Source of the DNA: an uncultured Gammaproteobacteria bacterium
GTDB lineage: Bacteria > Patescibacteriota > Microgenomatia > UBA8517
Direction of reading: 5' to 3'
Assembly (NCBI GenBank): GCA_964635715.1
Contig: CAZWNZ010000001.1
Coordinates: 10,358 to 74,357, forward strand
DNA length: 64,000 nucleotides
In this document: piece after piece, positions 2,793-49,672 of the stretch
How the letters are laid out: each line of letters starts with the position of its first letter
Position numbering within the stretch: position 1 is the first letter of the stretch
Notes under the pieces: generated by a model
What the model was told of the DNA's origin: nothing
The model's database searches: none
Seen by the model: the letters and a program-made list of their open reading frames with translations, nothing else
Made by a program: the position numbers and the translations under genes

Positions 2793-3284
2793 TCAGGACT
2801 TACGTTTTGTTTCAACTATTCCTGATATTGTTTCGAGTGCTTTTAAGGTTGCGTAAACGTTAGATATTTTATTCTTTGTTCCTAAAATTTTTCCAACTGC
2901 ATCCCTAATTCCGGCAGCTTCCAAAACAACCCTCATCGGTCCCCCTGCAATAATCCCGGATCCGGGAGGTGCTGGTTTCAATAAAATCTTTGCTGCAGAA
3001 AACTTTTCATTCACCGAATAAGGAATCGTTGTCCCCACAAGGGGAACCAAAATCATATTTCTTTTTGCCGCTTCGATAGATTTTCTAATAGCATTCCTTA
3101 CATCTGTAGCTTTGGCAATTCCCACCCCCACTTTTCCTTTTCTGTCGCCAACCACAACAAGAGATGAAAATCTAATTTGATTTCCACCTTTGGTTTTCTT
3201 GGAAATACGGTTTATCTGAACCACTGTTTCCTCAAACTCTTTGGGACCTTGATCGTAATTACTGTTTCTTCTATTAAATGCCAT
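2793..3284 (-). CDS. rpsE: 30S ribosomal protein S5
   Basis: S5 signature (GRxxRFxALVVVGDxxGxVGxGxGKAxEVxxAIxKA...). spc-operon position between L18 and L15; no L30 gene in the 22-nt gap to rplO. Confidence 0.93.
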   Translation of the reverse strand: MAFNRRNSNYDQGPKEFEETVVQINRISKKTKGGNQIRFSSLVVVGDRKGKVGVGIAKATDVRNAIRKSIEAAKRNMILVPLVGTTIPYSVNEKFSAAKILLKPAPPGSGIIAGGPMRVVLEAAGIRDAVGKILGTKNKISNVYATLKALETISGIVETKRKS

Positions 3285-3670: not shown

Positions 3671-4225
3671 TTAGGCGGTTCCTCCCGTCTTCGCTGCAGC
3701 GGCTTTACCCGCTTTCCTTCTGATAATTTCGTCTATGTATTTAATTCCTTTTCCTTTATATGGTTCCGGTGGTCTGGCTGCTCTAATGCTTGCAGCCGTC
3801 TGTCCGACAACTTCTCTGTTATATCCTTCGACTGTAACTATATTTTTTTCAACTTTAAAACTGATACCCTCCGGGGCTTTAATTTTTACAGGGTGTGAAT
3901 ACCCGATTGTTAAAGACAATTCTGATCCGACAATCTCAGCTCTGAAACCGGTTCCGACCAATTCCAATTTTTTACTCCACCCCGTCGACACTCCGGTAAC
4001 ATCATTATTAATAAGCGCCCTCGTTGTTCCAAAAAGGGACATTACATATTTACTATTACCTTTAGCACTTACCTGCACTTTTCCGTCAGCCACTTCGACG
4101 CCGATTTCAGGAGCAAAATGACGTTTAATTGTTCCTTTAGGGCCCGTAATGGTAACAGAGTGACCGCTTACTTCTACGGTTACTGCTGCTGGTATTATAA
4201 CTGGTTGTCTTCCGATCTTACTCAT
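3671..4225 (-). CDS. rplF: 50S ribosomal protein L6
   Basis: MSKIGRQPVIIPAAVTVEVSGHSVTITGPKG; operon position. Confidence 0.93.
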   Translation of the reverse strand: MSKIGRQPVIIPAAVTVEVSGHSVTITGPKGTIKRHFAPEIGVEVADGKVQVSAKGNSKYVMSLFGTTRALINNDVTGVSTGWSKKLELVGTGFRAEIVGSELSLTIGYSHPVKIKAPEGISFKVEKNIVTVEGYNREVVGQTAASIRAARPPEPYKGKGIKYIDEIIRRKAGKAAAAKTGGTA

Positions 4226-4308
4226 TTTTGTTTTATTCTAAATTTGTATGAAAAGCTCCGTTTATTTTACTCATGTTTTTATTTTTTATTTATAGTGAAA
4301 CTGTCAAA

Positions 4309-4689
4309 CTACCAAATTTCCGCTATTACTTCCCCTCCCGTTCTGTCTTTTATTGCCTTCAAAGATGATGTGACTCCTTTGGGAGTTGAAACAAGATAAA
4401 CTGAAGGTCCTCTTTTCTTTTCAAGTTCTTCAGTACCCATGTAAATTCTTAGACCTGGTTTTGAAACAAGTTTAAGATTCATCAATCTTGGACTTTTGTT
4501 TTTGAATGTCAAAGTTACGGTCAAAATTCCTTTTTCGTTTTTAACTGTGTCAACAAACCCCATTTTCTTTAGAGTTTCAGCAATAGCAACAAGTTTCTTG
4601 TTAGATTTAACAGTGACTTCCCTGTTTCCCGCCATTGCAACATTTTTGATTCTTATTAAAAAGTCTCCGATTGAGTAATTAGTATTCAT
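4309..4689 (-). CDS. rpsH: 30S ribosomal protein S8
   Basis: DFLIRIKNVAMAGNREV...GGEVIAEIW S8 termini. Confidence 0.93.
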   Translation of the reverse strand: MNTNYSIGDFLIRIKNVAMAGNREVTVKSNKKLVAIAETLKKMGFVDTVKNEKGILTVTLTFKNKSPRLMNLKLVSKPGLRIYMGTEELEKKRGPSVYLVSTPKGVTSSLKAIKDRTGGEVIAEIW

Positions 4690-4707
4690 ATTAGTTTTGT
4701 TCTAAAA

Positions 4708-4893
4708 TTACCAGGATGCCTTTCTGACACCCGGAATTTCACCCTTAAGCGCATGTTCTCTAAAACACAGTCTACAGATGCCGAATTTGCGCATATAGCC
4801 ACGGCCCCTACCGCAGATTTTACATCTGTTTCTATATCGTACCTTAAATTTTAGTTTTTTTGTTTCCCGAACCTCTTTTGCTGTTGTACTCAT
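4708..4893 (-). CDS. rpsZ: 30S ribosomal protein S14 type Z (zinc-binding, 61 aa)
   Basis: [24 protein letters not shown]4 motif; 61 aa; lies between rplE and rpsH. Confidence 0.9.
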
Positions 4894-5441
4894 TTTTTGT
4901 CCTCCTTGCTAAACTGCATTCCTAAAAGTTCTAATAGTTTTTTTGATTTATCAATATCTTTTGCTGTTGTAACAAACGTTACTTCCATACCATGAGGGCT
5001 CGCACTTTTTGTCGTGTCTATTTCAGGAAAAACGGTATGCTCGGCAAAACCCAGAGTATAGTTTCCCATTTTGTCAAAAGATTTTAAAGATACCCCCCTA
5101 AAATCTCTTAAACGGGGCAAAACGATCGAAAAAAGTCTGTCTAGGAAAGAATACATTCTTTCACCTCTCAAAGTTACGGAAAGCCCTACCGGCATTCCGG
5201 CACGCAAAGAAAAGCTGGCTATTGATACTTTTGCATTTCTAACCGAAGGAAATTGCCCTGTGATTGTAGCTAAATCTTTTTTGAGAGCATCCATGGCTCC
5301 CTGGTTTTTAGACAAATTACCGACTCCCATATTAACAATTACCTTCTCCATTTTTGGAACTGCAAAAGTATTGTTAACACCAAACTCTTTCACAAGAGCC
5401 TCTTTAATTTCTTTGTTATATTTTTCCTGTAATCTATTCAT
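4890..5441 (-). CDS. rplE: 50S ribosomal protein L5
   Basis: L5 family sequence ([14 protein letters not shown] ... [12 protein letters not shown]); operon position. Confidence 0.93.
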
Positions 5442-5468
5442 ATTTTATTAATTCACTGACCTGGCAAT

Positions 5469-5783
5469 TTATTTACTGTCTATTTCTTTTCCGCACTTTT
5501 TACAAAAACGTACTTTTTCTTCTCCTGCAAATTTAAATCCAATTCTGGAAACTTTTTTGCATTTTGGGCAAACCAGCGCAATCTTTCCAAATCCCAAAGC
5601 TCTTGGGATATCATAAATTCCGCCTTTTACATCCCCAAAACCTTTGACATGTTTTTTGTAAAGATTAATTCCAGGAACAATAGCTTTAGAGTCGGTCGGT
5701 AATATTTTTTCAATTTTACCATCCCTTCCTTTATCTTTACCTGCTGTTATTTTTACGTTGTCTCCTACTTTAAATTTAATCAT
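5469..5783 (-). CDS. rplX: 50S ribosomal protein L24 with C-terminal CxxC...CxxC zinc-ribbon extension
   Basis: KOW motif KVGDNVKITAGKDKGRDGKI. C-terminus CPKCKKVSRIGFKFAGEEKVRFCKKCGKEI. Start taken at MIKFKVGD (ATG rc 5781-5783). Confidence 0.88.
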   Translation of the reverse strand: MIKFKVGDNVKITAGKDKGRDGKIEKILPTDSKAIVPGINLYKKHVKGFGDVKGGIYDIPRALGFGKIALVCPKCKKVSRIGFKFAGEEKVRFCKKCGKEIDSK

Positions 5784-5810
5784 ATTCTTAATAATTACCA
5801 ATACTACCAA

Positions 5811-5911
5811 TAAGTACCAATTTCAAATTTCCAATTAATTGGGTATTTGTATTTATTTGATTATTGGTGTTCATTGGTATTTTTTTACCACGTCATCGTG
5901 GCAAGCTTTGC
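5811..5911. repeat. imperfect ~95-bp palindromic intergenic element (copy I) between rplX and rplN
   Basis: Left arm attaccaatactaccaataagtaccaatttcaaatttccaat pairs with right arm attgggtatttgtatttatttgattattggtgttcattggtattttt. Homologous to the element at 7347-7441. Confidence 0.7.
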
Positions 5912-6277
5912 TTATACTACCTCTCTCGCTAATGACGCTATCTTGTTATATCCGGCTTCTTTGATTTCTCTGGCTATGGGCCCTAAAATCCTTGTCCCCC
6001 TGGGTAGTCCTTGTTTATCAATTACAACCCCTGCATTATCATCAAATCTGATATAGCTTCCGTCTTCTCTTCTGATTTCTTTATGTGTCCTGACTATCAA
6101 AACTTTTACTTTTTCGTGATTAGCCACAACTCCCGCCGGATCGGCATCTTTGACCACACCCAGAACAACATCTCCTACTGTAGCTACCTTACCGACTCTT
6201 CCGGGAATTCCGATAATCATTATCCTTTTTGCCCCGCTATTGTCTGCCGAAACCAACATTGTTCTAAGTTGTACCAT
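5912..6277 (-). CDS. rplN: 50S ribosomal protein L14
   Basis: MVQLRTMLVSADNSGAKRIMIIGIPG; operon position. Confidence 0.93.
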   Translation of the reverse strand: MVQLRTMLVSADNSGAKRIMIIGIPGRVGKVATVGDVVLGVVKDADPAGVVANHEKVKVLIVRTHKEIRREDGSYIRFDDNAGVVIDKQGLPRGTRILGPIAREIKEAGYNKIASLAREVV

Positions 6278-6296
6278 AAGTTTAGTAATCTAGATT

Positions 6297-6545
6297 CTAA
6301 CTTCTAGCCTTCCCCCTTTCTTTTACTACTTCTGTAATTTTCCACTTCTTTAATTTTGAAACCGGCTTGCAATCACGGAACTTAACCATATCCCCAATTT
6401 TTGTACCAATCTCATCATGAACCTGATATTTAGTCGACCTTGTGAACCTCTTTTTATAAAGAGGGTGAATTTTTACTCTTTCCACTGAAACAGTTGCCGT
6501 TTTGGCTTGCTTCAGTCCTATTACTTTTCCTGTAAATATTTTCAT
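6297..6545 (-). CDS. rpsQ: 30S ribosomal protein S17
   Basis: GKVIGLKQAKTATVSVERVKIHPLYKKRF; operon position. Confidence 0.92.
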   Translation of the reverse strand: MKIFTGKVIGLKQAKTATVSVERVKIHPLYKKRFTRSTKYQVHDEIGTKIGDMVKFRDCKPVSKLKKWKITEVVKERGKARS

Positions 6546-6583
6546 ATGTTTAGATGATACTAATTTTAAATCTCATACGAATG

Positions 6584-6859
6584 TCACGAATTATTTTTTT
6601 TGTCAGAATTCGCATCATTCGTGTCGTTTTTATCAGTTTTATTCGCGTCGGTCAATTTCTCAATAATCTCTTTTTCTCGGATCAAGGTTAGTATTTTAGC
6701 AATTTCGGAAGACAAATTCCTCTTCAATTTTAAATTTTTCTCTTTTCCTCCCAAAATTTTCATTTTTGCCTTTTCTTCATCATTCTTTTTGGCAATAACA
6801 ATCTTCCTTAATTCCTTAATATTTTTACCCCTTAATTCGTTATATTCTTTCTTTTTCAT
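6584..6859 (-). CDS. rpmC: 50S ribosomal protein L29 with Lys/Asn/Asp-rich C-terminal tail
   Basis: ELRGKNIKELRKIVIAKKNDEEKAKMKILGGKEKNLKLKRNLSSEIAKILT fits L29; located between rplP and rpsQ. Confidence 0.85.
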   Translation of the reverse strand: MKKKEYNELRGKNIKELRKIVIAKKNDEEKAKMKILGGKEKNLKLKRNLSSEIAKILTLIREKEIIEKLTDANKTDKNDTNDANSDKKNNS

Positions 6860-6872
6860 AATGCTTTGGCTT

Positions 6873-6909
6873 TATATAAAATTCATCTTCATGCAAACTT
6901 GTTTGCATA
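6873..6909 (-). promoter_or_regulatory. conserved palindrome (TGCAAACTTGTTTGCA) plus TATATA-box element 14 nt upstream of rpmC; copy A of 3
   Basis: tatataaaattcatcttcatgcaaacttgtttgcata; compare 35995-36033 and 44716-44752. Confidence 0.5.
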
Positions 6910-6926
6910 ATTCTTCTGACAGAATT

Positions 6927-7346
6927 TTATATATTACCCTCCTCTCTACTAACCATTTTGACATCAATTGGTAGCTTTGCAGATGCCTTTCTAAAGGCCT
7001 CCTTGATAGCTGACGCTTCAGCACCAGCCACTTCAAATAGAATTAATCCCGGTTTAACTACCGCAACATATGTTGAAATATCTCCTTTGCCTCCACCCAT
7101 TCTTTTTCCCGCAGGTCGGCTGGTTATTGGTTTGTCGGGAAAAACTCTAACCCAGACTCTACCACCTCTTTTAAGATGGTGTGTTATTGTACGCCTTGCA
7201 GCTTCTATTTGTGCAGCCGTCACCCATGCAACCTCCTGAGCTTTCAAACCATAATCTCCAAAGGAAATTGAGTTTCCGCGGGTTGCGGGACCCTTTCTTC
7301 TGCCTCTGAACTCTTTTATATATTTTCTTCTTTTTGGTTGTAACAT
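6927..7346 (-). CDS. rplP: 50S ribosomal protein L16
   Basis: MLQPKRRKYIKEFRGRRKG...GGGKG L16 family; operon position. Confidence 0.93.
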   Translation of the reverse strand: MLQPKRRKYIKEFRGRRKGPATRGNSISFGDYGLKAQEVAWVTAAQIEAARRTITHHLKRGGRVWVRVFPDKPITSRPAGKRMGGGKGDISTYVAVVKPGLILFEVAGAEASAIKEAFRKASAKLPIDVKMVSREEGNI

Positions 7347-7441
7347 TGTTCAATTTCAAATAAATACCAATTTCAAATTCCAAATTTCCAAAACGAAGTT
7401 TGTTACGTATTGGGAATTTGTATTTATTGGTTTATTGGTAC
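7347..7441. repeat. imperfect ~95-bp palindromic intergenic element (copy II) between rpsC and rplP
   Basis: Arm aaataaataccaatttcaaattccaaatttccaa pairs with arm attgggaatttgtatttattggtttattggtacttatt. Shares ccaataagtaccaat and caaat/ccaat blocks with 5811-5911. Confidence 0.7.
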
Positions 7442-8095
7442 TTATTGTTCTCCTTTCTTGTGTATCCACACCTTAACTCCCACATACCCTCTTTTCAAAA
7501 GGGCCGGAAATTGTGCATAATCTATTTCTTCTCTCAATGTCTGAGACGGAACTGATCCCTGATGAAACTTTTCAACTCGGGAAATTTCTGCTCCATTTAT
7601 ACGTCCTGCCAATACAACTTTTATACCCAATGCCCCTCCTGCCATAACTCTTTCGATTGCCTTCTGAACGGCACGCCTATGAGGAATCCTTCGCTCCATC
7701 TCTCCGGCTATTCTTTCTGCTACTAAACATGCCGAAAGTTCGGGATTTTTAACTTCGTTAATTCTTATATCGATTTTTATATCTTTGATACTTTTACCAC
7801 GGGCTTTACTCATTATTTCCAATATGTATCTTTTAACATCTTCTATACCTGTTCCACCGCGTCCGATAACCACACCGGGTCTACTTACGGTTATAATAAC
7901 AACTATACTTTTTGGCAATCTTTCGATTTCAACAGCCGTAACTCCTGCAAGTTTAAGTCTTTTTGTTAACTCCTGACGAATTTTTATATCTTCAACCAAA
8001 AAGTTCTTAAAGTTTGCAGGGTCAGCAAACCACCTTGATTTCCAGGGAAGGTAGCTACCAATTCTTATACCGGTCGGGTTAACTTTTTGTCCCAT
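7442..8095 (-). CDS. rpsC: 30S ribosomal protein S3
   Basis: MGQKVNPTGIRIG...KH domain; operon position. Confidence 0.94.
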   Translation of the reverse strand: MGQKVNPTGIRIGSYLPWKSRWFADPANFKNFLVEDIKIRQELTKRLKLAGVTAVEIERLPKSIVVIITVSRPGVVIGRGGTGIEDVKRYILEIMSKARGKSIKDIKIDIRINEVKNPELSACLVAERIAGEMERRIPHRRAVQKAIERVMAGGALGIKVVLAGRINGAEISRVEKFHQGSVPSQTLREEIDYAQFPALLKRGYVGVKVWIHKKGEQ

Positions 8096-8613
8096 TATTT
8101 TTTCTCAGAAGAGTCACCTTTGGTTCCCCTTCTGCCTTTCCCTCCTTTTTCAGGAGCTGCAACCGTAGCTTTAACTTCTGTTTTATCATTTGTCATTTGT
8201 TTATTTGCAGATTTGCTTATGTCCGAATCAAGCTTGCTTATTTGCTTATCAGCCTTGCTGTCTCTATTCAGCGTAGTTAATACTACGCGTATGTGTGCCA
8301 TTCTCTTTTTATAAGGATGCCACATTCCTCTGGACACCGGTCTTCCTCTTTTTAAGCGGGGACCTTCTCCTATTTGGATTTCTTTGAATATCAAATCTGT
8401 ATCAGAAACTCCTTGTGCTTTCGCATTTGCAACAGCCGCCTTAATTACTTTTGCTAAATCACCGGCTGCTCTCTTTTGCACAAAAGGCAGTCTTTCCACA
8501 GCATCAATCGGCTTCATTTTTTTGATTAAAGCCACAATCAGTCTAATTTTTCTCGGGCTTTCCAAAAGAAACTTCTGTGTTGCTTTAAACTCTTTTTGAT
8601 TATTGTTTTTCAT
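8095..8613 (-). CDS. rplV: 50S ribosomal protein L22 with Lys-rich C-terminal extension
   Basis: L22 core ...AKATQKFLLESPRKIRLIVALIKKM...; operon position. Confidence 0.9.
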   Translation of the reverse strand: MKNNNQKEFKATQKFLLESPRKIRLIVALIKKMKPIDAVERLPFVQKRAAGDLAKVIKAAVANAKAQGVSDTDLIFKEIQIGEGPRLKRGRPVSRGMWHPYKKRMAHIRVVLTTLNRDSKADKQISKLDSDISKSANKQMTNDKTEVKATVAAPEKGGKGRRGTKGDSSEKK

Positions 8614-8623
8614 TTTTTTAACG

Positions 8624-8905
8624 TTAGGTCTTGTCCATGGTACGCTTTACAATTTCTCCATGTCCTCTAAATGTTCTGGTCGGAGCAAATTCACCCAAAC
8701 GATGTCCAACCATATCCTCAGTTACAAAAACATTTATAAAAACGTGTCCGTTATGAACCTGGAAATACTTTCCGACAAATCCCGGTGCAATCTGACATTT
8801 TCTCGACCACGTTTTGATAGGACTCTCTTTAAGTCCCATCCCTTTTTCTACTTTTTTGACTAATATTGGGTCTATGTACGGCCCTTTTTTAGAACTTCTT
8901 GCCAT
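8624..8905 (-). CDS. rpsS: 30S ribosomal protein S19
   Basis: [16 protein letters not shown]...[33 protein letters not shown]. Confidence 0.94.
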
Positions 8906-8916
8906 AATTTATATAT

Positions 8917-9669
8917 TTAACCTAAAACAGATCTGCCTCCACGATGTTGAACAATCATTCTATTGGAATATTTTTTCTTTGTACGGGTTTTACCTACTGC
9001 ACGCCTACCGTAAACTGTTTTTTGGTATTTCATTCCAACACTGCTTCGTCCTTCTCCTCCTCCATGCGGGTGGGCATGAGGATTCATTGCAACTCCGCGG
9101 ACACTGGGCCTAACACCCATATGTCTCTTTCGCCCTGCTTTACCAATAATTTTATTCTTTTCATCTTCATTGCCTATTTGGCCTATCTCAGCCATACATT
9201 CAGGGTCGAATCTTCTTATTTCACTCGATGGCAATTTGACTAATACCCATTTTTCTTCTTTTCCAAAGATTACCGCCACACTTCCGGCTCCTTTGACCAT
9301 CTGTCCACCTTTCCCGCTGGTTATCTCAATATTATGGATCGGTGTTCCAACCGGTATAGCTCTTAAAGGCAAGGCATTCCCCGCTTCTGTCGGGGCCACA
9401 TCGGAAGCTAGGATTTTAGACCCGACTTTAACACCAATTGGGCAAATAATGTAGCGCTTATCTCCATCCTCATATGATACAAGAGCTATGTCAGCATTTC
9501 TATTCGGATCGTATTCTATTGACCTTACAACTCCCCAAACATCTTTTTTATTTCTTCGAAAATCCACTTCACGCAAAAATCTTTTTTCGCGTCCACCCTG
9601 ATGCCTGACAGTAACTTTACCTTTAGATCTTCCTGACTTTTTAGCCAATATACTTTTTAGTTTTTTCAT
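8917..9669 (-). CDS. rplB: 50S ribosomal protein L2
   Basis: L2 hallmark ...GRNADIALVSYEDGDKRYIICP...HMGVRPSVRGVAMNPHAHPHGGGEGR. Confidence 0.95.
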   Translation of the reverse strand: MKKLKSILAKKSGRSKGKVTVRHQGGREKRFLREVDFRRNKKDVWGVVRSIEYDPNRNADIALVSYEDGDKRYIICPIGVKVGSKILASDVAPTEAGNALPLRAIPVGTPIHNIEITSGKGGQMVKGAGSVAVIFGKEEKWVLVKLPSSEIRRFDPECMAEIGQIGNEDEKNKIIGKAGRKRHMGVRPSVRGVAMNPHAHPHGGGEGRSSVGMKYQKTVYGRRAVGKTRTKKKYSNRMIVQHRGGRSVLG

Positions 9670-9678
9670 AATTTCAAA

Positions 9679-9954
9679 TTATTTCTTCCCCTCTTCAAAA
9701 ACATCAATTTTATCACCGCTTTTTAAAACCACAATTCCCTTTTTAACTGCCAATTTGTTAAATTTACGTCCTCTGGCATTTCTTCCTTTTTCCGGACCAA
9801 TTTTTGCTGTTCTAACTTCAGTGACGGTAACATCAAAAATTTGAGCAATCTTGGCAGCTACCTGTTTTTTTGTCATGAAACTATCAATTTTGAACGTATA
9901 CTTACCATTCTTTGCGTCTGCTAAACTCTTTTCTGTAAAAATTGGTTTTAACAT
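9679..9954 (-). CDS. rplW: 50S ribosomal protein L23
   Basis: MLKPIFTEKSLADAKNGKYTFKIDSFMTKKQVAAKIAQIFDV; operon position. Confidence 0.9.
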   Translation of the reverse strand: MLKPIFTEKSLADAKNGKYTFKIDSFMTKKQVAAKIAQIFDVTVTEVRTAKIGPEKGRNARGRKFNKLAVKKGIVVLKSGDKIDVFEEGKK

Positions 9955-9972
9955 ATTATTAGTCGCTAGAAA

Positions 9973-10668
9973 TTAGCCATTAGATGTCAGTTTTTTTGCC
10001 TCTTTCTTGTCTGTTTTCTTAATCAACTTCTTTTCTTTTGCCTCTTGCCCTCCACCTTTTACCTGATTTCCGAATATCTCTCCATCTACAACAATCATTC
10101 CGCCTTTGTAAATATCCAGTGCATTTGAATTCTTATAATAAACAGGTTTTGCGTTTTCTAAGTTTCTCAAATACCTGACAGCTTCTTTTGATTTTTCCGA
10201 AAGAACAAAAGTAAATTTCTTCGCTCCGGTTTCTTTCTCCAACACTTTTATCAAACTACCGGCTAATTTTGTTTTATTAAGAGACGGTATTCCTGTGACA
10301 AAAGCCATCTGTTTGTCACTGGCTTTTAAAGAAAAGGCCATAAATTTGGCTTTATTTTTAATATCGTTGGCCAGATTTAAAACTCTTTTGACAGGTCTGG
10401 GCCCTAGTGCAACCCCTCCACCGACAAACAAATTTGCCCTTCTGCTTCCGTGACGGGCTCCTCCTGTTCCTTTTTGTTTATATATCTTCTTTGTGGTTCT
10501 ATTAATTTCTGCTCTGGTTTTAGTTTTTCTAAGACCAATATGAGCCCTGTCCTCATAGACATAAATTGCCTGTGCCAAAAGGGGCATATTAACCTCCACA
10601 CTAAATTCCTTTGGCAATACCATATCTTCTGTTTTTGTTCCTTTAATCGTGTATGTTTGTATCTTCAT
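9973..10668 (-). CDS. rplD: 50S ribosomal protein L4 with Lys-rich C-terminal tail
   Basis: Uncharacteristic tail but core QKGTGGARHGSRRANLFVGGGVALGPRP is L4; operon position. Confidence 0.9.
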   Translation of the reverse strand: MKIQTYTIKGTKTEDMVLPKEFSVEVNMPLLAQAIYVYEDRAHIGLRKTKTRAEINRTTKKIYKQKGTGGARHGSRRANLFVGGGVALGPRPVKRVLNLANDIKNKAKFMAFSLKASDKQMAFVTGIPSLNKTKLAGSLIKVLEKETGAKKFTFVLSEKSKEAVRYLRNLENAKPVYYKNSNALDIYKGGMIVVDGEIFGNQVKGGGQEAKEKKLIKKTDKKEAKKLTSNG

Positions 10669-10674
10669 ATGATT

Positions 10675-11490
10675 TTAAGCTTGTGCTTGTTCTTCAGTTT
10701 TGGCTGCTTCCGGTTTTGACTCTTCTTTAACCTCTTGTCCTTCACCTTTTACACCCTCTTCTGCCGGAGCTTCGCCTTCAACCACCTGTGCTATCACTTC
10801 TTTTTCAAGATCTTTCAAGCTACCTGATTTAATTCTTTTAATCGTTACCATGGATCCTGTGGTGCCGGGAATTTGTCCCGAAATTTCAATTGTATTTGTT
10901 TTTTCATCGACTGAAATTATGTGCAAATTTTTGATGGTAACAGTCTCTCCACCCATTCTTCCAGCCATTTTTTTGCCTTTATAGACTCTTCCCGGTGTCG
11001 TAGTCTGCCCGATTGATCCCGGAGCACGTTCACGATCGCTTTGTCCATGGGTTCTTGGCCCACCTCTAAAGTGCCATCTTTTGACAACTCCTGCAAAACC
11101 TTTCCCCTTAGAAGTTCCTGTGACGGCAACAATGTCTCCGCGCTTTAATACTTCGGCAGCATTGACAATATCTCCAACTTTAAGAGCGGAACCTGTTACG
11201 GATTCCGGTTCTTTCTCAAGCCTAACCTCTCTAAGATATCTCGGGAATGAATTTGGAATTTGGAATTTGGAATTTGGAATTTTTTTGAGGTGTCCTTGAA
11301 GGGGTTTTGAAGTATTTTTTGCAGGCCTATCTGAAAATCCGAGCTGAATTGCCCAGTATCCGTCGCGTTCCTCTTTTTTAATTTGTGTCACGACACAAGG
11401 GCCCGCAATTACTTTTGTAACGGGAATCCTAAAACCTTGAACAAAGGTTTGTGAACATATTCCTTTCGATCCTAAAATAGTATTAATCAT
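10675..11490 (-). CDS. rplC: 50S ribosomal protein L3 with loop insertion encoded by a heptanucleotide repeat and an acidic C-terminal tail
   Basis: TGTSKGKGFAGVVKRWHFRGGPRTHGQS...APGSIGQTTTPGRVYKGKKMAGRMG L3 core. Insertion KIPNSKFQIPNSFPRY lies in the loop equivalent to E. coli AGVEAGRGLWEF. Confidence 0.92.
   Translation of the reverse strand: MINTILGSKGICSQTFVQGFRIPVTKVIAGPCVVTQIKKEERDGYWAIQLGFSDRPAKNTSKPLQGHLKKIPNSKFQIPNSFPRYLREVRLEKEPESVTGSALKVGDIVNAAEVLKRGDIVAVTGTSKGKGFAGVVKRWHFRGGPRTHGQSDRERAPGSIGQTTTPGRVYKGKKMAGRMGGETVTIKNLHIISVDEKTNTIEISGQIPGTTGSMVTIKRIKSGSLKDLEKEVIAQVVEGEAPAEEGVKGEGQEVKEESKPEAAKTEEQAQA
11251..11282. repeat. (atttgga)x4.5 heptanucleotide microsatellite inside the rplC coding sequence
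   Basis: atttggaatttggaatttggaatttggaattt encodes IPNSKFQIPNS on the minus strand. Confidence 0.85.
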
Positions 11491-11540
11491 TTTGGTTTTG
11501 GAGCCCGTTAGATGTGAACACTATCTAATGGGCCATTAAA

Positions 11541-11570
11541 CAACAAAAAAGCGCCTTTGCCAGGCGCTTC
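11541..11570 (-). terminator. rho-independent terminator downstream of the membrane-protein gene 11675-12664
   Basis: Minus-strand reading aagcgcc tggcaa aggcgct followed by tttttt (plus aaaaaa at 11544-11549). Confidence 0.6.
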
Positions 11571-11674
11571 CCCTGAAGCCATCCTTTCAAAGACTCTTAA
11601 TCGTGGCTAGTGTTTATCATAACCACTATCATGTTATGAGGGGAATTATATCAGAACTTCTTGAGCTCCGCAAG

Positions 11675-12664
11675 CTAAATTGCAACAATGATGGTTGAAA
11701 TCACAATGAGAAGAACAACCGGAATTGTTTTTTTGATATTTTTATAGAATATTAGCCAAAAAATAGGCACAATTGGTGCTAAATACCTGCCTAAATTTTC
11801 CAAAAAAGGAACAAGATTGATACCAAGCGTAAAAATATAAAAAGCAGTAATAATCCAAAATTCCAAGCCACGGGATTTGAGAGCCTTCCAATATAAACAA
11901 ATATAAAAAGTAATGTAAAAAAAACCCGATAGCAAAATTCTGTACCAATGCCACCTTGCAGCTCTTATAAGATCGTAGAAAAGCTGTCCCATCCCAAAGC
12001 TAATTCTTGAAGGATGCAGCGCCTCGTAAGTAAAGAGCTGATAAAAAGGATTTTTTATTCCGAAAAAATACACGTTATAGATCACTAAAAGCACAACCGG
12101 AATCAAAAAATATGGTAGGTTAAGAACAGCCTTTTTAATTTTTTTTGTCATGATCATATAAAACACCATGCCAGCAAATATGGCTATTCCTGCAATTCTG
12201 AAAGTAACCGAGATACCCAAGACCAGAAACGCCCAACGAAATAAATCTTTTTTATAGAAATAAATTGCAAGAAGCATCAAAAATACAAAAGGCATCTCGG
12301 TATCAATTAGGGAAGACAAATTGAGTAATATCGGTGGAAAAATTAGTGGCAAAAAACTATATTTTGAACCCGTTAATTTATAGAGCAAAACATAGGATCC
12401 GATTAAAGACAATATTACAACTACATAACCTGCCAGAAATGAATTTCCTGTTATAAAATGAAGCAAATAAATGACAATTGGAAGCCCGGGCAAAAGGCGC
12501 GATTCAAAAAATGAAATTTTTCCAACATTTAAAGGAAGTGTCTCCGAATAACCAACATAGTTATCTTGCTGAACAATCCCATTATTAAATCTAATAAATG
12601 CCAAAAACACCGATATTATTACGCAAAGAATAAACAATTTATGTTTGTATATTTTTGTAAGCAT
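11675..12664 (-). CDS. polytopic membrane protein, putative glycosyltransferase/polymerase (GT-C, EpsG or Wzy-like fold); inserted between rpsJ and rplC
   Basis: About 10 predicted TM helices; aromatic and Pro-rich loops (FESRLLPGLPIVIY...). No soluble domain. Adjacent to a sugar-nucleotide epimerase. Confidence 0.35.
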   Translation of the reverse strand: MLTKIYKHKLFILCVIISVFLAFIRFNNGIVQQDNYVGYSETLPLNVGKISFFESRLLPGLPIVIYLLHFITGNSFLAGYVVVILSLIGSYVLLYKLTGSKYSFLPLIFPPILLNLSSLIDTEMPFVFLMLLAIYFYKKDLFRWAFLVLGISVTFRIAGIAIFAGMVFYMIMTKKIKKAVLNLPYFLIPVVLLVIYNVYFFGIKNPFYQLFTYEALHPSRISFGMGQLFYDLIRAARWHWYRILLSGFFYITFYICLYWKALKSRGLEFWIITAFYIFTLGINLVPFLENLGRYLAPIVPIFWLIFYKNIKKTIPVVLLIVISTIIVAI

Positions 12665-17896: not shown

Positions 17897-18330
17897 TTAA
17901 AATTTTCTATTTACTAGATGCCTATCTGTGTAAATAAGAACGTTTTGACCTTTGAAATTTAGATTATCTCTCTTTACTTTGAAACCTTGATTTTTTGCAT
18001 AATCAATTAGTGATTCTAACCAATTTACATTTGGTTTTTTAACTAAGGGTTCATCAATTACACAACAGGGTCAACCACGGTTACATCCCAGCCGTTTATA
18101 TTTAACAAAAGTGAAAGCAATCCTTTTCCACCACCAACATCTAAGGCTTTGGTGGGTTTGTATTTTTGGCTAAGCCACATCTGTAAAAGCTGAAAACGAA
18201 ACTTGTTGTTCAATCTTCGTTTTGTATTCATTAATCGGATTATACATTTTTTTAAATAATGAATTATATTATCTATTTTAATATTAATTAGTTCGATGGT
18301 TCGAACTATGGTACTATAAATATATGACAC
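17897..18330 (-). pseudogene. class I SAM-dependent methyltransferase remnant, frameshifted after motif I
   Basis: ORF 18058-18330 ends ...ALDVGGGKGLLSLLLNINGWDVTVVDPVV* (motif I). A second frame continues DEPLVKKPNVNWLESLIDYAKNQGFKVKRDNLNFKGQNVLIYTD... to a stop at 17897-17899. Confidence 0.45.
18289..18309. repeat. 21-bp direct repeat, 5' copy flanking TrpR-like gene 2 (8-4-8 dyad tagttcga-tggt-tcgaacta)
   Basis: tagttcgatggttcgaactat, identical to 18765-18785. Confidence 0.85.
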
Positions 18331-18767
18331 AAGTTTCTAGACATTTTATGAATCCTGATATTGAAAAGCGAGTTTATGAGGTATTTATAGAATCTGTTAA
18401 AAACACCAGAAATTCAAATGAAGTAATTGATTTTTTAAATGACTTACTTTCCCCTGTCGAAAAAATTATGATGGCAAAAAGAGTGGCCGTCGCATTTCTT
18501 TTACTTCAGGATAAATATACCTATGACCAAATTTCCAAAACCGTAAAGGTTAGTAGGGGTACAATTGCAAAAATTCATACCACTTTTGCTCTACAAGGAA
18601 AGGGGTATAGAAAAATTCTGGGAGATATTCTTAAAAGGAAAGTTGCGAAAATTGCATTATCGGAACTATTAGACGCGATAACTCTTCTTCCTCCAAAAGG
18701 TGCAAATCTTGGAGAATGGAAAAAGATGAAACGAAATGACAAATTAAAGAGAGAAAGTCCAATATAG
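18324..18767 (+). CDS. TrpR/YerC-like helix-turn-helix DNA-binding protein (paralogue 2 of 3)
   Basis: FLNDLLSPVEKIMMAKRVAVAFLLLQDKYTYDQISKTVKVSRGTIAKI (TrpR helix pattern). Confidence 0.6.
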   Translation: MTQVSRHFMNPDIEKRVYEVFIESVKNTRNSNEVIDFLNDLLSPVEKIMMAKRVAVAFLLLQDKYTYDQISKTVKVSRGTIAKIHTTFALQGKGYRKILGDILKRKVAKIALSELLDAITLLPPKGANLGEWKKMKRNDKLKRESPI

Positions 18768-28423: not shown

Positions 28424-28972
28424 TTATTCATAAACATGGGGTCCACCAGGTGTATCACCAAGATTGGTTTCATTGTAATCAGTTACTAAAATTCCTTGAC
28501 GCCTATCCGGGGATGTTATTACAACATCCTCTTCATAATCTTCATCACCACAATGACAAAATCTAGCCTGACATTTTCCACCACAATGTTCATAAATGTA
28601 ATGACCACAATCACATTTCTCAAATTCAAATTGATCAACATTTCCAATTTGAAATTTTGAATTTCTTTCTCTTTCAATATAGTCATTCACTACTGCGTAT
28701 TTGGTACTGAAGCACCATGGAAAACATTTTGGACGACCTTTACTTCCCCTAGAAACAAGGAAACATAAACTTTCTCCTGCTTTGGGGTATGGGAGGTCAT
28801 ATGGCACATCAAGTTTACTAAAAGCAATTTCACTATTTCTGATTTCTAGCGCTCTACCGTCACCAAAATGAAGAAATATTTCAACATCTTCTCCGTCTGG
28901 CTTCACAAAACCATAACCTTTCACCTTATCAAACCAAACAACTCTTCCAAATTTTAATTCCATTTCACTCAC
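28424..28972 (-). CDS. cold-shock domain protein fused to a C-terminal Cys/His-rich (probable zinc-binding) domain
   Basis: N-terminus GRVVWFDKVKGYGFVKPDGEDVEIFLHF is a CSD; C-terminus CFPWCF...CDCGHYIYEHCGGKCQARFCHCGDEDYEE. Confidence 0.6.
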   Translation of the reverse strand: MSEMELKFGRVVWFDKVKGYGFVKPDGEDVEIFLHFGDGRALEIRNSEIAFSKLDVPYDLPYPKAGESLCFLVSRGSKGRPKCFPWCFSTKYAVVNDYIERERNSKFQIGNVDQFEFEKCDCGHYIYEHCGGKCQARFCHCGDEDYEEDVVITSPDRRQGILVTDYNETNLGDTPGGPHVYE

Positions 28973-29234
28973 TCACGTTTCGATTCTTTTGTCGCTTGCC
29001 CGCAAGGGTTCAAGTATCAGGAATCTAGCTACTTAAAAAGCAGCATTCCGAGCACAGTTTAAGTATGCCCAGAGTGCTGCCTTCAAATAGCTTTAGAGCA
29101 AGTTATCTCTTTGAAAGTTAAAGAACTTTTTGGCTAAGCTCAAGGCTATAGCCAAACTCGAATTCCAAGCAAATATAGAATTCAAGTATCCGATAGTATA
29201 ATATATCAGGGGCTAAAAATCCAGTGTATTACTG

Positions 29235-30034: not shown

Positions 30035-30121
30035 AAATTAGTATTTAGTAGTTAGAAATTAGAAACTAGATCTGGAATGTATTTTAGCAGTTCCTAACTA
30101 CTAACTTCTAGATTCCAACTC

Positions 30122-30856: not shown

Positions 30857-33070
30857 TTACTCGGGTTTCACATCTACGGTAATATTCTTGGAAATTCTTG
30901 GGATGGTTTTCAAAAATCCCGGGAACTTAATTTTTAAAACAATATCCGCATGGTCAAAACCCTGAATAGAATTTAAGTATGAGGTGGCAATAGTTGTTGT
31001 CTTGCCGGATATCGTACTTTTTATCTTTTCCGCATCAACCTCAGGTAGGAAGTTTCCACCCACCACAACATCATAAACGTAATTGCCGTCTTGTTCTTCC
31101 ACAAAAGTGAACCTGAAATCTATCTGATCTGAAGTTAATATATAACCCGACGGGGATTTGTCGCCCAAAATTCCCTTTGCATATTCTAGAATTTGCTCCC
31201 TTTCTACTACCAAACCGGTAGCGTTAATTGTCAAAGCAAGCTTCAAATTGCTCGCCTGATCTCCAACATCATAATCGAAAATCTCTTTGGCAACATCCAA
31301 TCCGGCCAGGTCATTAACAAAGAGCTCGTCTGCAGAAATTTTTGCCGACAATTCCGATTTTGCATTCTGGCTAAGTTCTGTTTTCAACCCCTCCTCAAGC
31401 TCCGTTTGATCATCTTTGCTAACCGCCGAAATTTGCTGGCTACTACCGCCACTAAAGTCTGCTGTAGATGTTGCAGCAACAAGAGATTTGGAATAATTTC
31501 CAACACTAAATACTTCGCCCTTGGCTAAATTGTAGGTCGATCCAATATCATAAGCTGTGACATTCACAGTTGCAGTACCTGGGGAACCCGGCAAAATTTG
31601 ACCGGATATAGAGGCTTCATTATTTGTCAAAAATTTGAAACCTGACGAAGAAGTTAAAACTGTTCCTGACGTGAGATTTATAGCAACGCTGTTCCCGTTG
31701 GCTATCTCCACCGAACCTGACGCTTTATCACCAATAAGTTTGGTTCCTGTGGTTGATTTTGTTTTCTCACCGGACACTTCGCTTGTTACGGTTTTTGCAG
31801 GAATGATGTTGTTTTCTTGATTAAATTGATCTTTCGTACTGAATGTAATCCGCGCGCTCTCTTCCGCTCTCTTGGATGTAACATAAATAGTCACTTTAGC
31901 AGTTTGTGCAAACCACCATAAGCCAGCCACAGCCAGTAGAGCTAATCCGAGAATGGATAAGACCACCATCGGGACTCTTTTTTTCCCGGTAGAATTAATA
32001 TTTGGCTTGGAAAACATCTTGGAGAAAGAGTGGAATAGCTGTTTAGATTTGGTGAAATAATCTATATGTCCTTTTTGCGGTTGTGTGATCGGCGCTTCTA
32101 CCTGCTGAAATGGAGCTTTGGGATAAACATCAGTTGGGGGCGATTGTACAGGAACAACATTTTGGACATCTTCATTTTTCATCGAAGAAACGTCTTCCTC
32201 CAAAGCAAATCCCAAACTTTCCGCAGTCACGGGCTTTGTCTCTTCCGGTTTTTCATTTATTTCCTCATATTGAGGCTCCTCAACTTCTTTATATTCAGAC
32301 TTTTCGCTGCTGACCACTCCTTTGACGTCTCCCATCTCTGCTCCACCCGCTAAAGCTGTTGCTAATACTTTTTTATCCACACTTAAGACCTCCACCTGAG
32401 GTGTGTGTAAAAAGCTGATTTTACCTTCGCCCCAATTAGCCTGAAGCAAAGTCTGTTTTGCCTCCTCAAGCTCGCCTTCTTTTCCGTCATAGACAATGAA
32501 CCTTGTTGGTAGGGGTGATATCCCCTCAAATCTTGAAAGCCCCTCAATCACGTCATCCACCAGAGACACACTTCTTGAAACTTCCGTTGTTCCTGCCAGT
32601 TCGCCAAGTTTAAATACCGAAATTTCTAAATTTTCACCACTGGTATTCAAAACAATCGCATTAAGAGGTGATGATTCCTCGGATTTATATAAGTGAGCAA
32701 TTGCCTCAGGTAAGACAACGAATCCAACAGGAGTCAGAGAAAGCTCTGTGCAAAGTTTTTTTATTTTAAGAAGATTCTCCGGAGAAATCACTCCATCTTT
32801 TACCCATGAAGTGGAAACCCCAAAAACCGTCTTTGATGGTTCCGGATAATCCTCGGGGAGTTTTTGTATTGCCGATGAAAGAGCTGCATCAGTCGCTTCA
32901 ACCAACTCCTCATCATTTTCCCACGGAATTCCCGCCCCTATCCCGACAACCTTTGCCTCACCCTCACCTATATACCAAATTCCGGATTGCACCAAACCTT
33001 TTTCTATTACAAGTGCCCAAAAAAGCTCAGGTGGACTTTCTTTACTTGTTATCAAATCTTTAAGGTTCAT
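30857..33070 (-). CDS. large membrane protein: N-terminal cytoplasmic actin-fold (PilM/FtsA-like) domain, Pro/Glu-rich linker, one TM, ~350-aa Ser/Thr-rich extracellular domain
   Basis: N-terminus ...ALVIEKGLVQSGIWYIGEGEAKVVGIG...AIVLNTSGENLEISVFKLGELAG resembles PilM/FtsA nucleotide-binding strands. TM VVLSILGLALLAVAGLWWF at about residue 370. Confidence 0.35.
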   Translation of the reverse strand: MNLKDLITSKESPPELFWALVIEKGLVQSGIWYIGEGEAKVVGIGAGIPWENDEELVEATDAALSSAIQKLPEDYPEPSKTVFGVSTSWVKDGVISPENLLKIKKLCTELSLTPVGFVVLPEAIAHLYKSEESSPLNAIVLNTSGENLEISVFKLGELAGTTEVSRSVSLVDDVIEGLSRFEGISPLPTRFIVYDGKEGELEEAKQTLLQANWGEGKISFLHTPQVEVLSVDKKVLATALAGGAEMGDVKGVVSSEKSEYKEVEEPQYEEINEKPEETKPVTAESLGFALEEDVSSMKNEDVQNVVPVQSPPTDVYPKAPFQQVEAPITQPQKGHIDYFTKSKQLFHSFSKMFSKPNINSTGKKRVPMVVLSILGLALLAVAGLWWFAQTAKVTIYVTSKRAEESARITFSTKDQFNQENNIIPAKTVTSEVSGEKTKSTTGTKLIGDKASGSVEIANGNSVAINLTSGTVLTSSSGFKFLTNNEASISGQILPGSPGTATVNVTAYDIGSTYNLAKGEVFSVGNYSKSLVAATSTADFSGGSSQQISAVSKDDQTELEEGLKTELSQNAKSELSAKISADELFVNDLAGLDVAKEIFDYDVGDQASNLKLALTINATGLVVEREQILEYAKGILGDKSPSGYILTSDQIDFRFTFVEEQDGNYVYDVVVGGNFLPEVDAEKIKSTISGKTTTIATSYLNSIQGFDHADIVLKIKFPGFLKTIPRISKNITVDVKPE

Positions 33071-44696: not shown

Positions 44697-44715
44697 AATT
44701 TAAATTTATTTAAGT

Positions 44716-44752
44716 TATATAAAACTTATCTTCTTGCAAATTTATTTGCATA
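44716..44752 (-). promoter_or_regulatory. conserved palindrome (TGCAAATTTATTTGCA) plus TATATA-box element 20 nt upstream of pnp; copy C of 3
   Basis: tatataaaacttatcttcttgcaaatttatttgcata. Confidence 0.5.
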
Positions 44753-44788
44753 ACATTAGTGACAAAGTTTTATATTATTATTCAATTT

Positions 44789-49222: not shown

Positions 49223-49672
49223 ATGACTAAAATTTCAAAATTGCCATTAAGATCTGATGTTTGGAATCGGATTTTTGATTTGTTCGTCAGTACCCTATCC
49301 AACCAAAGAGATAAAAAGAAATTATCAAATTTTATTAATGATTTTTTCTCGCCAACTGAAAGAATAATGTTTGCAAAAAGGTTGGCTATTGCGGTTCTGG
49401 TCGCAAAAGGCCAAGATTATCAAAGTATCCACGAAATTTTGAAAGTAAGTCCACCAACTATTGCAAAACTTAGTTTAAGAATCAAATATATGGGGGAGGG
49501 TTTAAACCCTGTTATTAGAGATATTTTTAAGAGTCAGGCGTTGCAAATTATATGGAAAGAAACTGAAGATCTGTTTGATTTGCCAACAAAAGGTAACTTA
49601 AAATCGCCCGAAAGATTTAAAAGAAAACTTCGAAGAGTGAAGCAAATTAATAAAATGAGATCGGAATTTTAA
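49223..49672 (+). CDS. TrpR/YerC-like helix-turn-helix DNA-binding protein (paralogue 3 of 3)
   Basis: FINDFFSPTERIMFAKRLAIAVLVAKGQDYQSIHEILKVSPPTIAKL. Confidence 0.6.
   Translation: MTKISKLPLRSDVWNRIFDLFVSTLSNQRDKKKLSNFINDFFSPTERIMFAKRLAIAVLVAKGQDYQSIHEILKVSPPTIAKLSLRIKYMGEGLNPVIRDIFKSQALQIIWKETEDLFDLPTKGNLKSPERFKRKLRRVKQINKMRSEF

Follow-up and report, generated by a model that had tools for sequence, protein, structure and literature searches.

Between rplN and rplX, in the ribosomal protein operon of a 64,000-nt stretch of contig CAZWNZ010000001.1 (positions 10,358 to 74,357; hereafter the window), lies a 92-nt imperfect palindrome of CCAAT-type modules, here called copy I. [quoted passage not shown] That it belongs to a dispersed intergenic repeat family and was acquired by insertion is very probable; for mobilisation in the manner of a REPIN or a MITE the chances appear evenly balanced. 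Small palindromic intergenic repeats are a known class that is newly seen in this phylum, membership in the REPINs or the MITEs being not established. The hosts of the family are Microgenomates-type Patescibacteria of the Candidate Phyla Radiation (CPR), in which the elements occupy short spacers between genes of the same direction or between convergent genes.

The palindrome and its place in the operon

The operon is of the S10/spc type and runs on the minus strand of the window from rplC (10675-11490) through rpsE (2793-3284), as judged from open reading frames (ORFs) and Pfam matches. The window has a G+C content of 36-43%, its S3 homologues carry the source names Microgenomates or Patescibacteria, and its sequence is identical in the Logan assembly of run SRR8925806 (L001), an assembly that may share the window's source data. 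The intercistronic spacer extends from the rplN stop codon (TAA, 5912-5914, minus strand) to the ATG of rplX at 5783. A program-called ORF (5469-5810) opens at a TTG within copy I; because all relatives begin with ATGATTAAATTTAAA, the ATG at 5783 is taken as the true start of rplX. A preliminary description of this DNA had located the element at 5811-5911: the sequence quoted there is present, but the coordinates were shifted, the spacer covering 5784-5911 and the palindrome 5790-5881.

The main stem of copy I spans 5796-5879 and turns at about 5836/5837, where the tip reads CCAA-UUAA-UUGG (at about 5831-5842). On the mRNA strand the 5' arm is built from the units ACCAAT, GAACACCAAT, AATCAAAT, AAATACAAAT and ACCCAAT, and the 3' arm from ATTGGAA, ATTTGAA, ATTGGTACTT, ATTGGTAGT and ATTGGTAATT. 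Two inverted repeats nested in each other, one of 22 nt with 77% and one of 18 nt with 78% complementarity, together with a palindrome that exceeds chance when its folding is compared with shuffles, bear out the long imperfect inverted repeat of the preliminary description. The motifs CCAAT and ATTGG are strongly concentrated here: seven of them fall within 120 nt at copy I, against 183 in the entire 64 kb and four in each of the next densest 120-nt windows. The small hairpin at 5885-5904 (CCACG-ATGA-CGTGG plus outer pairs) stands outside the repeat family and occurs once across all sequence compared by BLAST; other small hairpins occupy the rplN-rplX site in relatives.

As RNA, the transcribed (minus) strand of the spacer folds at -30.2 kcal/mol (z = -4.31), a stability that none of 200 shuffles reached, and its AU-rich stem is predicted to form the long hairpin foreseen for the transcript in the preliminary description. 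The plus strand gives -29.8 kcal/mol (z = -3.70) and the spacer as single-stranded DNA -19.4 kcal/mol (z = -4.64). When every spacer of 40 nt or more in the window is ranked by fold z-score, that of copy I is among the most negative.

A homologous element had been proposed for the rpsC-rplP spacer, and both BLAST and nhmmer recover it there, at 7347-7441. This copy II is the sole other match to copy I in the window (BLAST E = 2e-5 and 4e-4), so that the BLASTN count comes to one further copy in 64 kb; a family profile run with nhmmer likewise finds exactly two matches, copy I at E = 6e-19 and copy II at E = 4e-12. Copy II begins immediately past the rpsC stop codon. In alignment the two copies have both arms in common, with 57 invariant columns and 21 nt extra at the tip of copy II, which has an extended loop, ACGTAACAAACTTCGTT. 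This loop type is also present in L069 (3758-3867). The fold of copy II is the weaker of the two (-17.4 kcal/mol, z = -2.0).

The same operon was compared from relatives whose S3 is 88-94% identical to that of the window. The rplN-rplX spacer measures 6-28 nt in six sequences (L017, L021, L023, L027, L028 and L009); four further relatives, retrieved via L24, have 13 nt (L087) or 47-52 nt with a small unrelated hairpin (L086, L090 and L093), in agreement with the earlier statement that rplX and rplN normally lie a few nucleotides apart. The rpsC-rplP spacer is 5, 8, 12, 17 and 37 nt long in five relatives. Searched with the family profile (nhmmer), 168 kb of the relatives' loci contain no element, and relatives with 88-91% S3 identity lack it at both spacers. 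Copy II is kept only in the closest relative, represented by L025 and L026 (S3 94%, two separate samples), where the L025 copy has one additional TACCAATAA unit; the contigs of both end before rplN. This comparison shows that copy I arrived in the rplN-rplX spacer, and copy II in that of rpsC-rplP, in the lineage to which this genome belongs.

The repeat family, its possible mobility and its apparent constraint

Further members were sought with exact patterns, once across GTDB species genomes and once across JGI metagenomes, and then with nhmmer; about 10 of the 15 genome matches and about 35 of the 52 metagenome matches are due to chance or are coding. The pattern scans and the profile yielded about 20 elements of the same build at distinct loci (Table 1), the loci being assigned from program-made ORF calls plus translation or Pfam. 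Their lengths range over 68-133 nt, with a median of 92. In the 5' arm, 7- and 10-nt units that end in CCAAT or CAAAT follow one another, and the 3' arm is a string of units that begin with ATTGG or ATTTG; the distance from one CAAT-type or ATTG-type unit to the next is most often 7 or 10 nt. As in REPINs, the inverted halves fold as a hairpin in single-stranded DNA or RNA, the members reaching -11 to -50 kcal/mol. The copy in L009 has lost most of its 3' arm. One metagenome-assembled genome with two copies is labelled Gammaproteobacteria, a label that is unconfirmed.

Table 1. Features of the two spacers in the window and members of the repeat family elsewhere
Feature	Position or sequence	Strand	Basis or remark
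rplN (L14), upstream cistron	5912..6277	-	ORFs; PF00238 on same gene in L001
rplX (L24), downstream cistron	5469..5783	-	ORFs; PF17136, KOW; start kept in relatives
rplN-rplX intercistronic spacer, 128 nt	5784..5911	-	ORFs, Pfam of L001 genes, spacer comparison with relatives
CCAAT-module palindrome copy I, 92 nt	5790..5881	-	inverted repeats, folds, nhmmer match 5790-5882, E = 6e-19
Small GC-rich hairpin UUGCCACG-AUGA-CGUGGUAA just past rplN stop, then A-run	5885..5904	-	RNA fold
Copy II, in rpsC-rplP spacer 7347-7441	7353..7441	-	BLAST, alignment, nhmmer
rpsC (S3), upstream of copy II	7442..8095	-	ORFs, Pfam of L001, homologues
rplP (L16), downstream of copy II	6927..7346	-	ORFs, Pfam of L001
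Member in rpsC-rplP spacer	L009		distant Patescibacterium; S3 only 60% identical to that of the window
Members in rplK-rplA spacer	L031, L034		L1 55% identical between both genomes
Member in groES-groEL spacer	L077
Member in rpsA-like (S1)-radA spacer	L039
Member in tRNA-binding protein-ftsH spacer	L052
Member in response regulator-histidine kinase spacer	L053		two-component pair
Members at topA/dprA	L069		two copies in 4.4 kb
Member at ligase/Fic	L066
Member in GT2-GT39 glycosyltransferase spacer	L004
Member between convergent queA and capA	L008
Member between convergent membrane protein gene and efp	L035
Members, GC-richer variants	L033		at least 4 in 6.8 kb

The family is not specific to ribosomal operons. 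By program-made ORF calls its members are always extragenic: 16 are flanked by genes that run in the same direction, three by convergent genes and none by divergent ones. Each element has a polarity, scoring 25-30 bits better on one strand (nhmmer). In same-direction contexts 13 elements stand in sense and three in antisense orientation (P = 0.02), or 10 and three if each locus is counted once (P = 0.09). Most genes in such genomes follow the direction of replication, and GC skew and gene strand agree within the window, so that the sense-strand bias could reflect either the transcription or the replication strand. A bias set by the replication strand would fit transposition of the IS200/RAYT type, which works on single strands and depends on hairpins.

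Two traits expected of MITEs were seen, namely a polymorphism of presence and absence and nearly identical copies at more than one locus. Copy I differs from the rplK-rplA element of L031 at about four positions over about 90 nt (about 95% identity), apart from a 47-nt insertion in the left arm of the latter, and the loop AACAAACTTCGTT is common to copy II (W2), L025 and one of the L069 elements (L069b). Movement or transfer is needed to explain these near-identical copies, which sit at different loci in different genomes. We envisage the family as non-autonomous mobile DNA that spreads, or did so in the past, like REPINs, BOX elements or MITEs. The vehicle would probably be a hairpin formed by a single strand and recognised by a protein whose gene lies elsewhere, which would fit both the missing target-site duplication and the shared polarity. 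Five matches to AATAAATACAAATNNCCAAT on viral contigs were also considered; none is palindromic and all were rejected as chance.

The sequence of the element appears to be held under constraint. Copy II and its orthologue in L025 differ at 5 of 95 positions and by one 9-nt unit, with an identical loop. Four-fold degenerate sites, compared between the window and L025, differ by 42% in S3, 46% in L16, 35% in S19 and 56% in L2, and under this silent-site rate the conservation of copy II has a binomial P < 1e-11. A recent exchange of the copy II segment is unlikely, because coding flanks within 15 nt diverge normally. Read from the alignment, the conservation of copy II indicates constraint at the sequence level; and since it is the sequence and not the pairing that is constrained, a factor that reads specific sequence may recognise the element. 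Such a factor could be a mobilising enzyme that maintains the consensus of the family, or else an RNA- or DNA-binding protein of the host.

The adjacent 67-nt rplP-rpmC spacer is likewise conserved in L025 (63 of 67 positions), despite near-saturated silent sites. It holds a different recurring motif, made of TTCTGTCAG, a hairpin and then GAAGATGAATTTTATATA, with sites in the window at 6860-6926 (minus strand) and 44715-44753 and in L017 at 11348-11418. The hairpin of this second motif covaries: its arms are ATGCAAAC/GTTTGCAT in rplP-rpmC, ATGCAAAT/ATTTGCAA in rpsO-pnp and ACGTGAAC/GTTCACGG in rpmC-rpsQ of a relative. An internal promoter, an operator and an RNA motif are all conceivable for it.

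A number of results weigh against the view of copy I as a mobile repeat that forms a hairpin. The members include poor folders, namely L030 at -11 kcal/mol and L077 at -14 kcal/mol. Transition mismatches between the arms are without G-U excess on the mRNA strand (35 G-U against 40 A-C), and neither strand folds better than the other. Chimeric arm pairs fold at a mean of -23.5 kcal/mol and native pairs at -22.8 kcal/mol, the native pair ranking 9-20 of 20 with the exception of two GC-rich outliers. RNAalifold, applied to 18 members, retains just a 5-pair CCAAT/ATTGG core and no compensatory changes. The conservation of the left arm near the tip (AAATACAAAT-NN-CCAAT) is partly imposed by the search patterns. 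At the DNA level, the 64-kb window holds only two copies, both in one operon. The borders of copy I, copy II and the L031 element are without target-site duplication, the empty sites being too diverged for single-base precision; and no clean terminal inverted repeat boundary is definable in the AT-rich flanks. The outermost units are indeed inverted (AATACCAAT ... ATTGGTAATT), but the element as such is one inverted repeat, with ends that differ between copies by complete units. Neither a transposase nor a RAYT is among the about 40 window proteins screened with Pfam, the window being a small part of the genome (related S3 genes sit on contigs of 0.77-0.95 Mb), and no insertion sequence was noticed by eye in the loci compared, where no systematic search was made. 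Strong conservation of an old copy is not predicted for a decaying selfish insertion, and the test of constraint covers one orthologous pair, that of copy II only. For copy I the L24 homologues include no orthologue, only relatives with 13-nt spacers or an unrelated small hairpin.

The preliminary description had offered a processing site, an attenuator and a MITE-like insertion as candidates, and the last of these is the best of the three guesses: the insertion, the second copy and the dispersed family are in its favour, but neither a target-site duplication nor a parent insertion sequence was found.

The element in the presumed transcript and rival explanations

In a scan of 4000-12000 no promoter-like or terminator-like site was found at 5784-5911 or 7347-7441; the likely terminator and promoter region of the operon lies upstream of rplC. 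A 184-nt structured region is situated there (11491-11674, z = -3.6), with a terminator-like hairpin (11573-11545) followed by promoter-like hexamers (11518-11489), and it is probably the operon boundary. Placed inside the operon without promoter or terminator, the element would be transcribed with it. In the mRNA it would fold into an extended AU-rich hairpin with mismatches, so that no more than roughly 30 unpaired nucleotides would separate the stop codon of rplN from the start of rplX. The AU-rich stem of copy I is followed by AAUUAUUAAGAAU, and its T7 run is on the plus (antisense) strand. An intrinsic terminator, with a GC-rich stem and a U-tract, was rejected at both elements; the attenuator role proposed at the outset, like that of a terminator, is not supported, in view of the AU-rich stem, the lack of a U-tract after it on the minus strand and an empty terminator scan at both sites.

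Our best guess for an effect is that the intercistronic hairpin would act as a barrier to RNases or as a substrate for them, because the window encodes RNase J and PNPase and because RNase III cleaves the hairpins of Correia elements and transcript levels change as a result (PMC10969869). The window contains no rnc gene. The element may also be a spacer that still permits re-initiation on rplX. A significant effect at the RNA level seems possible but doubtful, and the tests of mismatches, chimeric arms and covariation gave no sign of selection for an RNA structure of the hairpin.

This bears on the explanation of copy I as a selected cis-acting RNA, for which mobility would have been only the means of arrival and which would serve as a site of processing by RNase III or RNase J, as a stabilising site or as a tuner of re-initiation. 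Copy II is conserved at about 95% where four-fold sites diverge by 35-56%, and the same spacers have been filled repeatedly in lineages far apart: that of rpsC-rplP in L009 and in the lineage of the window and L025, and also in L027, where the palindrome consists of GGTAAA units and is unrelated; that of rplK-rplA in both L031 and L034. Highly expressed operons are frequent among the sites (three ribosomal ones, groESL and rpsA), the elements are biased towards the sense strand, and small hairpins with true compensatory changes occur in other spacers of these operons. However, the element itself shows neither covariation nor arm-to-arm matching, nor an excess of G-U over A-C on the mRNA strand; most close relatives do without it; antisense copies and copies between ordinary genes exist; and the L009 copy has dispensed with most of its 3' arm. 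A selected RNA of this kind is therefore unlikely, if still worth considering.

A related and rather improbable interpretation takes the CCAAT palindromes as a CPR-specific intercistronic control element that is recognised by sequence, was spread by mobility and was then kept by selection. A common RNA- or DNA-binding factor could read the CCAAT units and co-ordinate processing, decay or re-initiation across core operons (those of ribosomal proteins, groESL and rpsA), which would explain why old copies are near-identical although silent sites are saturated, why spacers have been refilled in distant lineages and why pairing shows no compensatory evolution.

Alternatively, the element may be a DNA-level array of protein binding sites, the palindrome being nothing but sites placed head to head. 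Candidates for the protein are a nucleoid-associated protein, a gyrase-type factor (as for the BIMEs of E. coli) or a small helix-turn-helix regulator, for instance one of the three TrpR-like paralogues of the window. Such an array would agree with a constraint on sequence rather than pairing, with mismatches that are strand-symmetric, with the recurrence of CCAAT/ATTGG units at 7- and 10-nt spacing and with the conservation of both arms and the loop in the orthologous pair. Yet the candidate proteins are putative only, the mixture of 7 and 10 nt puts the sites out of strict helical phase, and divergent, promoter-containing spacers, where an array for a transcription factor would be expected, hold no copy at all. 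We consider this explanation distinctly improbable.

A purely local origin, in which replication slippage and template switching of short CCAAT-type units produced a palindrome that never moved, is very improbable as the sole source. The arms do consist of 7- and 10-nt tandem units, the number of units varies between orthologues (one extra TACCAATAA in L025), rplC contains an in-frame TTCCAAA x4 run and other spacers carry palindromes of different heptamers; but a copy of about 95% identity over about 90 nt at a different locus of a different genome, and sub-family traits such as the loop AACAAACTTCGTT that several loci have in common, are at odds with it. Slippage probably remodels the copies without explaining their distribution. 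Finally, an operon-specific autoregulatory leader of a ribosomal protein, a riboswitch or a transcription attenuator, suggested by the position inside a ribosomal protein operon and by the fold, is hardly credible, given that the element has no Rfam match at the gathering threshold (E = 0.94 noise only), is missing from close relatives (S3 88-91%), belongs to a family found also at groES-groEL, topA-dprA, a two-component pair and glycosyltransferases, and has an AU-rich stem with neither U-tract nor terminator call. Rfam gave nothing at the gathering threshold in the whole window and, at E <= 1 over 5600-7600, only a snoRNA noise match; a scan for tRNA and tmRNA found none.

Known repeats, further observations and significance

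A transcribed mobile repeat, the reading that we favour, invites comparison with several known systems. The half of a REPIN is one REP of 20-40 nt with a GTAG-type head. REPINs, which RAYTs mobilise, consist of inverted doublets that form hairpins (PMC3116915). Like the REP/REPIN elements of Proteobacteria, the CCAAT elements are small, apparently multi-copy, non-coding and extragenic imperfect palindromes with hairpin halves and a polarity (PMC3116915; PMC12306157), located within operons or at gene 3' ends and without target-site duplication. They differ in that no RAYT was seen, in their density of two per 64 kb, in belonging to another phylum and in the build of their halves, each a string of three to five degenerate 7- or 10-nt CCAAT/CAAAT units and not a single 20-40-nt REP with a conserved head.

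The BOX elements of Streptococcus pneumoniae, reportedly treated by Martin et al. in 1992 and by Croucher et al. in 2011, comprise three box types (A, B and C) of about 45-60 nt. They are modular and intergenic, vary in the number of internal units, form stable predicted hairpins, are co-transcribed and have no known transposase. In these respects the CCAAT elements appear alike, but here the units are 7-10 nt long, one CCAAT motif builds both arms and there is apparently no sequence relationship. Correia elements (NEMIS) are bounded by 26-nt terminal inverted repeats, duplicate a TA target and carry an IHF site or internal promoters. The CCAAT element resembles these and other bacterial MITEs in size class, inverted-repeat build, intergenic or intra-operon location and presumed co-transcription, but defined ends, a target duplication and internal promoters of the Correia kind were not found in it. 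Phage T7 intercistronic RNase III sites and intra-operon REP stabilisers of E. coli are imperfect hairpins between cistrons that segment or stabilise polycistronic mRNA. In contrast to the CCAAT element, these are unique, locus-specific or GC-rich and have experimental support, and the likeness holds if the RNA interpretation is right.

The TAACTGA repeats of Beggiatoaceae, Cyanobacteria and Bacteroidetes are heptamers upstream of start codons, including sites inside ribosomal protein operons; they form direct tandem arrays of a single heptamer, with one inverted case reported, a patchy distribution and no known mechanism (PMC4679880). Short 7-nt units and intra-operon spacers link the CCAAT elements to these and to cyanobacterial STRR sequences; here, however, a degenerate mixture of 7- and 10-nt units is arranged in two inverted arms. 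TIGR arrays consist of two alternating 8-12-nt repeats and about 9-nt spacers, in 5-15 units of about 36 nt beside a Nop-domain tas gene (PMC12045711). This identification, to which CCA-containing short repeats in CPR had pointed, was rejected: the present units of 7-10 nt stand without spacers in one palindrome between ribosomal protein genes. The scan matches in Calothrix (L007 2430-2560 and L010 2110-2240) are runs of a CCCAAT heptamer beside GGAGTTA tandem repeats; with no inverted arm they were set aside as unrelated or at most distant. The Calothrix repeat in L007 and L010 shares the 20-mer AATAAATACAAATTCCCAAT with the CPR family. In the literature searched, no description of dispersed palindromic repeats in CPR/Patescibacteria was found.

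Different palindromes occupy further spacers. The sortase-ruvX spacer of the window (30035-30121) holds an imperfect one of TTAGTAG/CTACTAA heptamers (RNA fold z = -4.3), a single occurrence in the sequence compared; L025 has an ACTAGT/CCTAAT palindrome in rplV-rpsC and L027 a palindrome of GGTAAA units in rpsC-rplP. It seems that these genomes generally tend towards palindromes built from short tandem units. Within rplC, at 11250-11285, the TTCCAAA x4 run encodes IPNSKFQIPNS; compared with five relatives, this lengthens a variable loop of L3 by 5 residues. The CCAAA-type unit of the run is also that of the arms of the element. Two other motifs recur in the spacers of relatives. A hairpin of the form GAGAT-stem-loop-stem-GAC, with compensatory stem changes in three lineages, is found in rplN-rplX of L086 (491-539), L090 (446-497) and L093 (11-57), and GATCCTGAAATAAATTCAGGAT appears in two spacers of L025 (1736-1769 and 657-690) and in rplN-rplX of L023 (12035-12062).

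Elsewhere in the window, three genes of the TrpR family (PF01371) lie on the plus strand, against the gene flow of the minus strand (1551-1976, 18324-18767 and 49223-49672), one of them between rpsG and fusA inside the str operon. With a mutual identity of only 22-27% they are old paralogues, and a recent mobile cassette was rejected. The spc operon breaks off past rpsE: the segment 700-3300 has two ORFs without Pfam match (110 and 91 aa), an opposite-strand TrpR-like gene and an HlyD-like gene, where L021, L023 and L027 have rplO-like, secY, adk, map, infA, rpsM, rpsK and rpsD, which suggests a rearrangement or insertion after rpsE in this lineage. The most structured spacer of the window, with 262 nt at 28973-29234 (-86.8 kcal/mol, z = -6.5, minus strand, no Rfam match), lies upstream of a cold-shock-domain gene (28424-28972) and could be a long structured 5' untranslated region. 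A 737-aa protein (30857-33070) among housekeeping genes has a weak Baseplate_J-like match (E = 3e-5).

Genomes of CPR/Patescibacteria are small and compact, and few studies have dealt with the non-coding part of their DNA. Here, hairpin-forming inserts of about 90 nt separate cistrons that in relatives are otherwise 5-37 nt apart and probably coupled in translation; they sit in the cell's most conserved operon and, once there, are preserved. Such inserts account for spacers of unusual length in annotated CPR ribosomal operons, and for spuriously extended ORF starts like the TTG at 5810. The most notable features are the strong sequence conservation and the repeated occupation of the same intercistronic sites in core operons, and their meaning depends on what the constraint stands for. 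On the one hand, if constraint means function, the elements would offer a handle on post-transcriptional control in organisms that are not culturable alone. On the other hand, if they are selfish, even minimal genomes carry parasites of the REPIN or BOX kind, which would provide a marker for strain typing and for exchange between CPR lineages.

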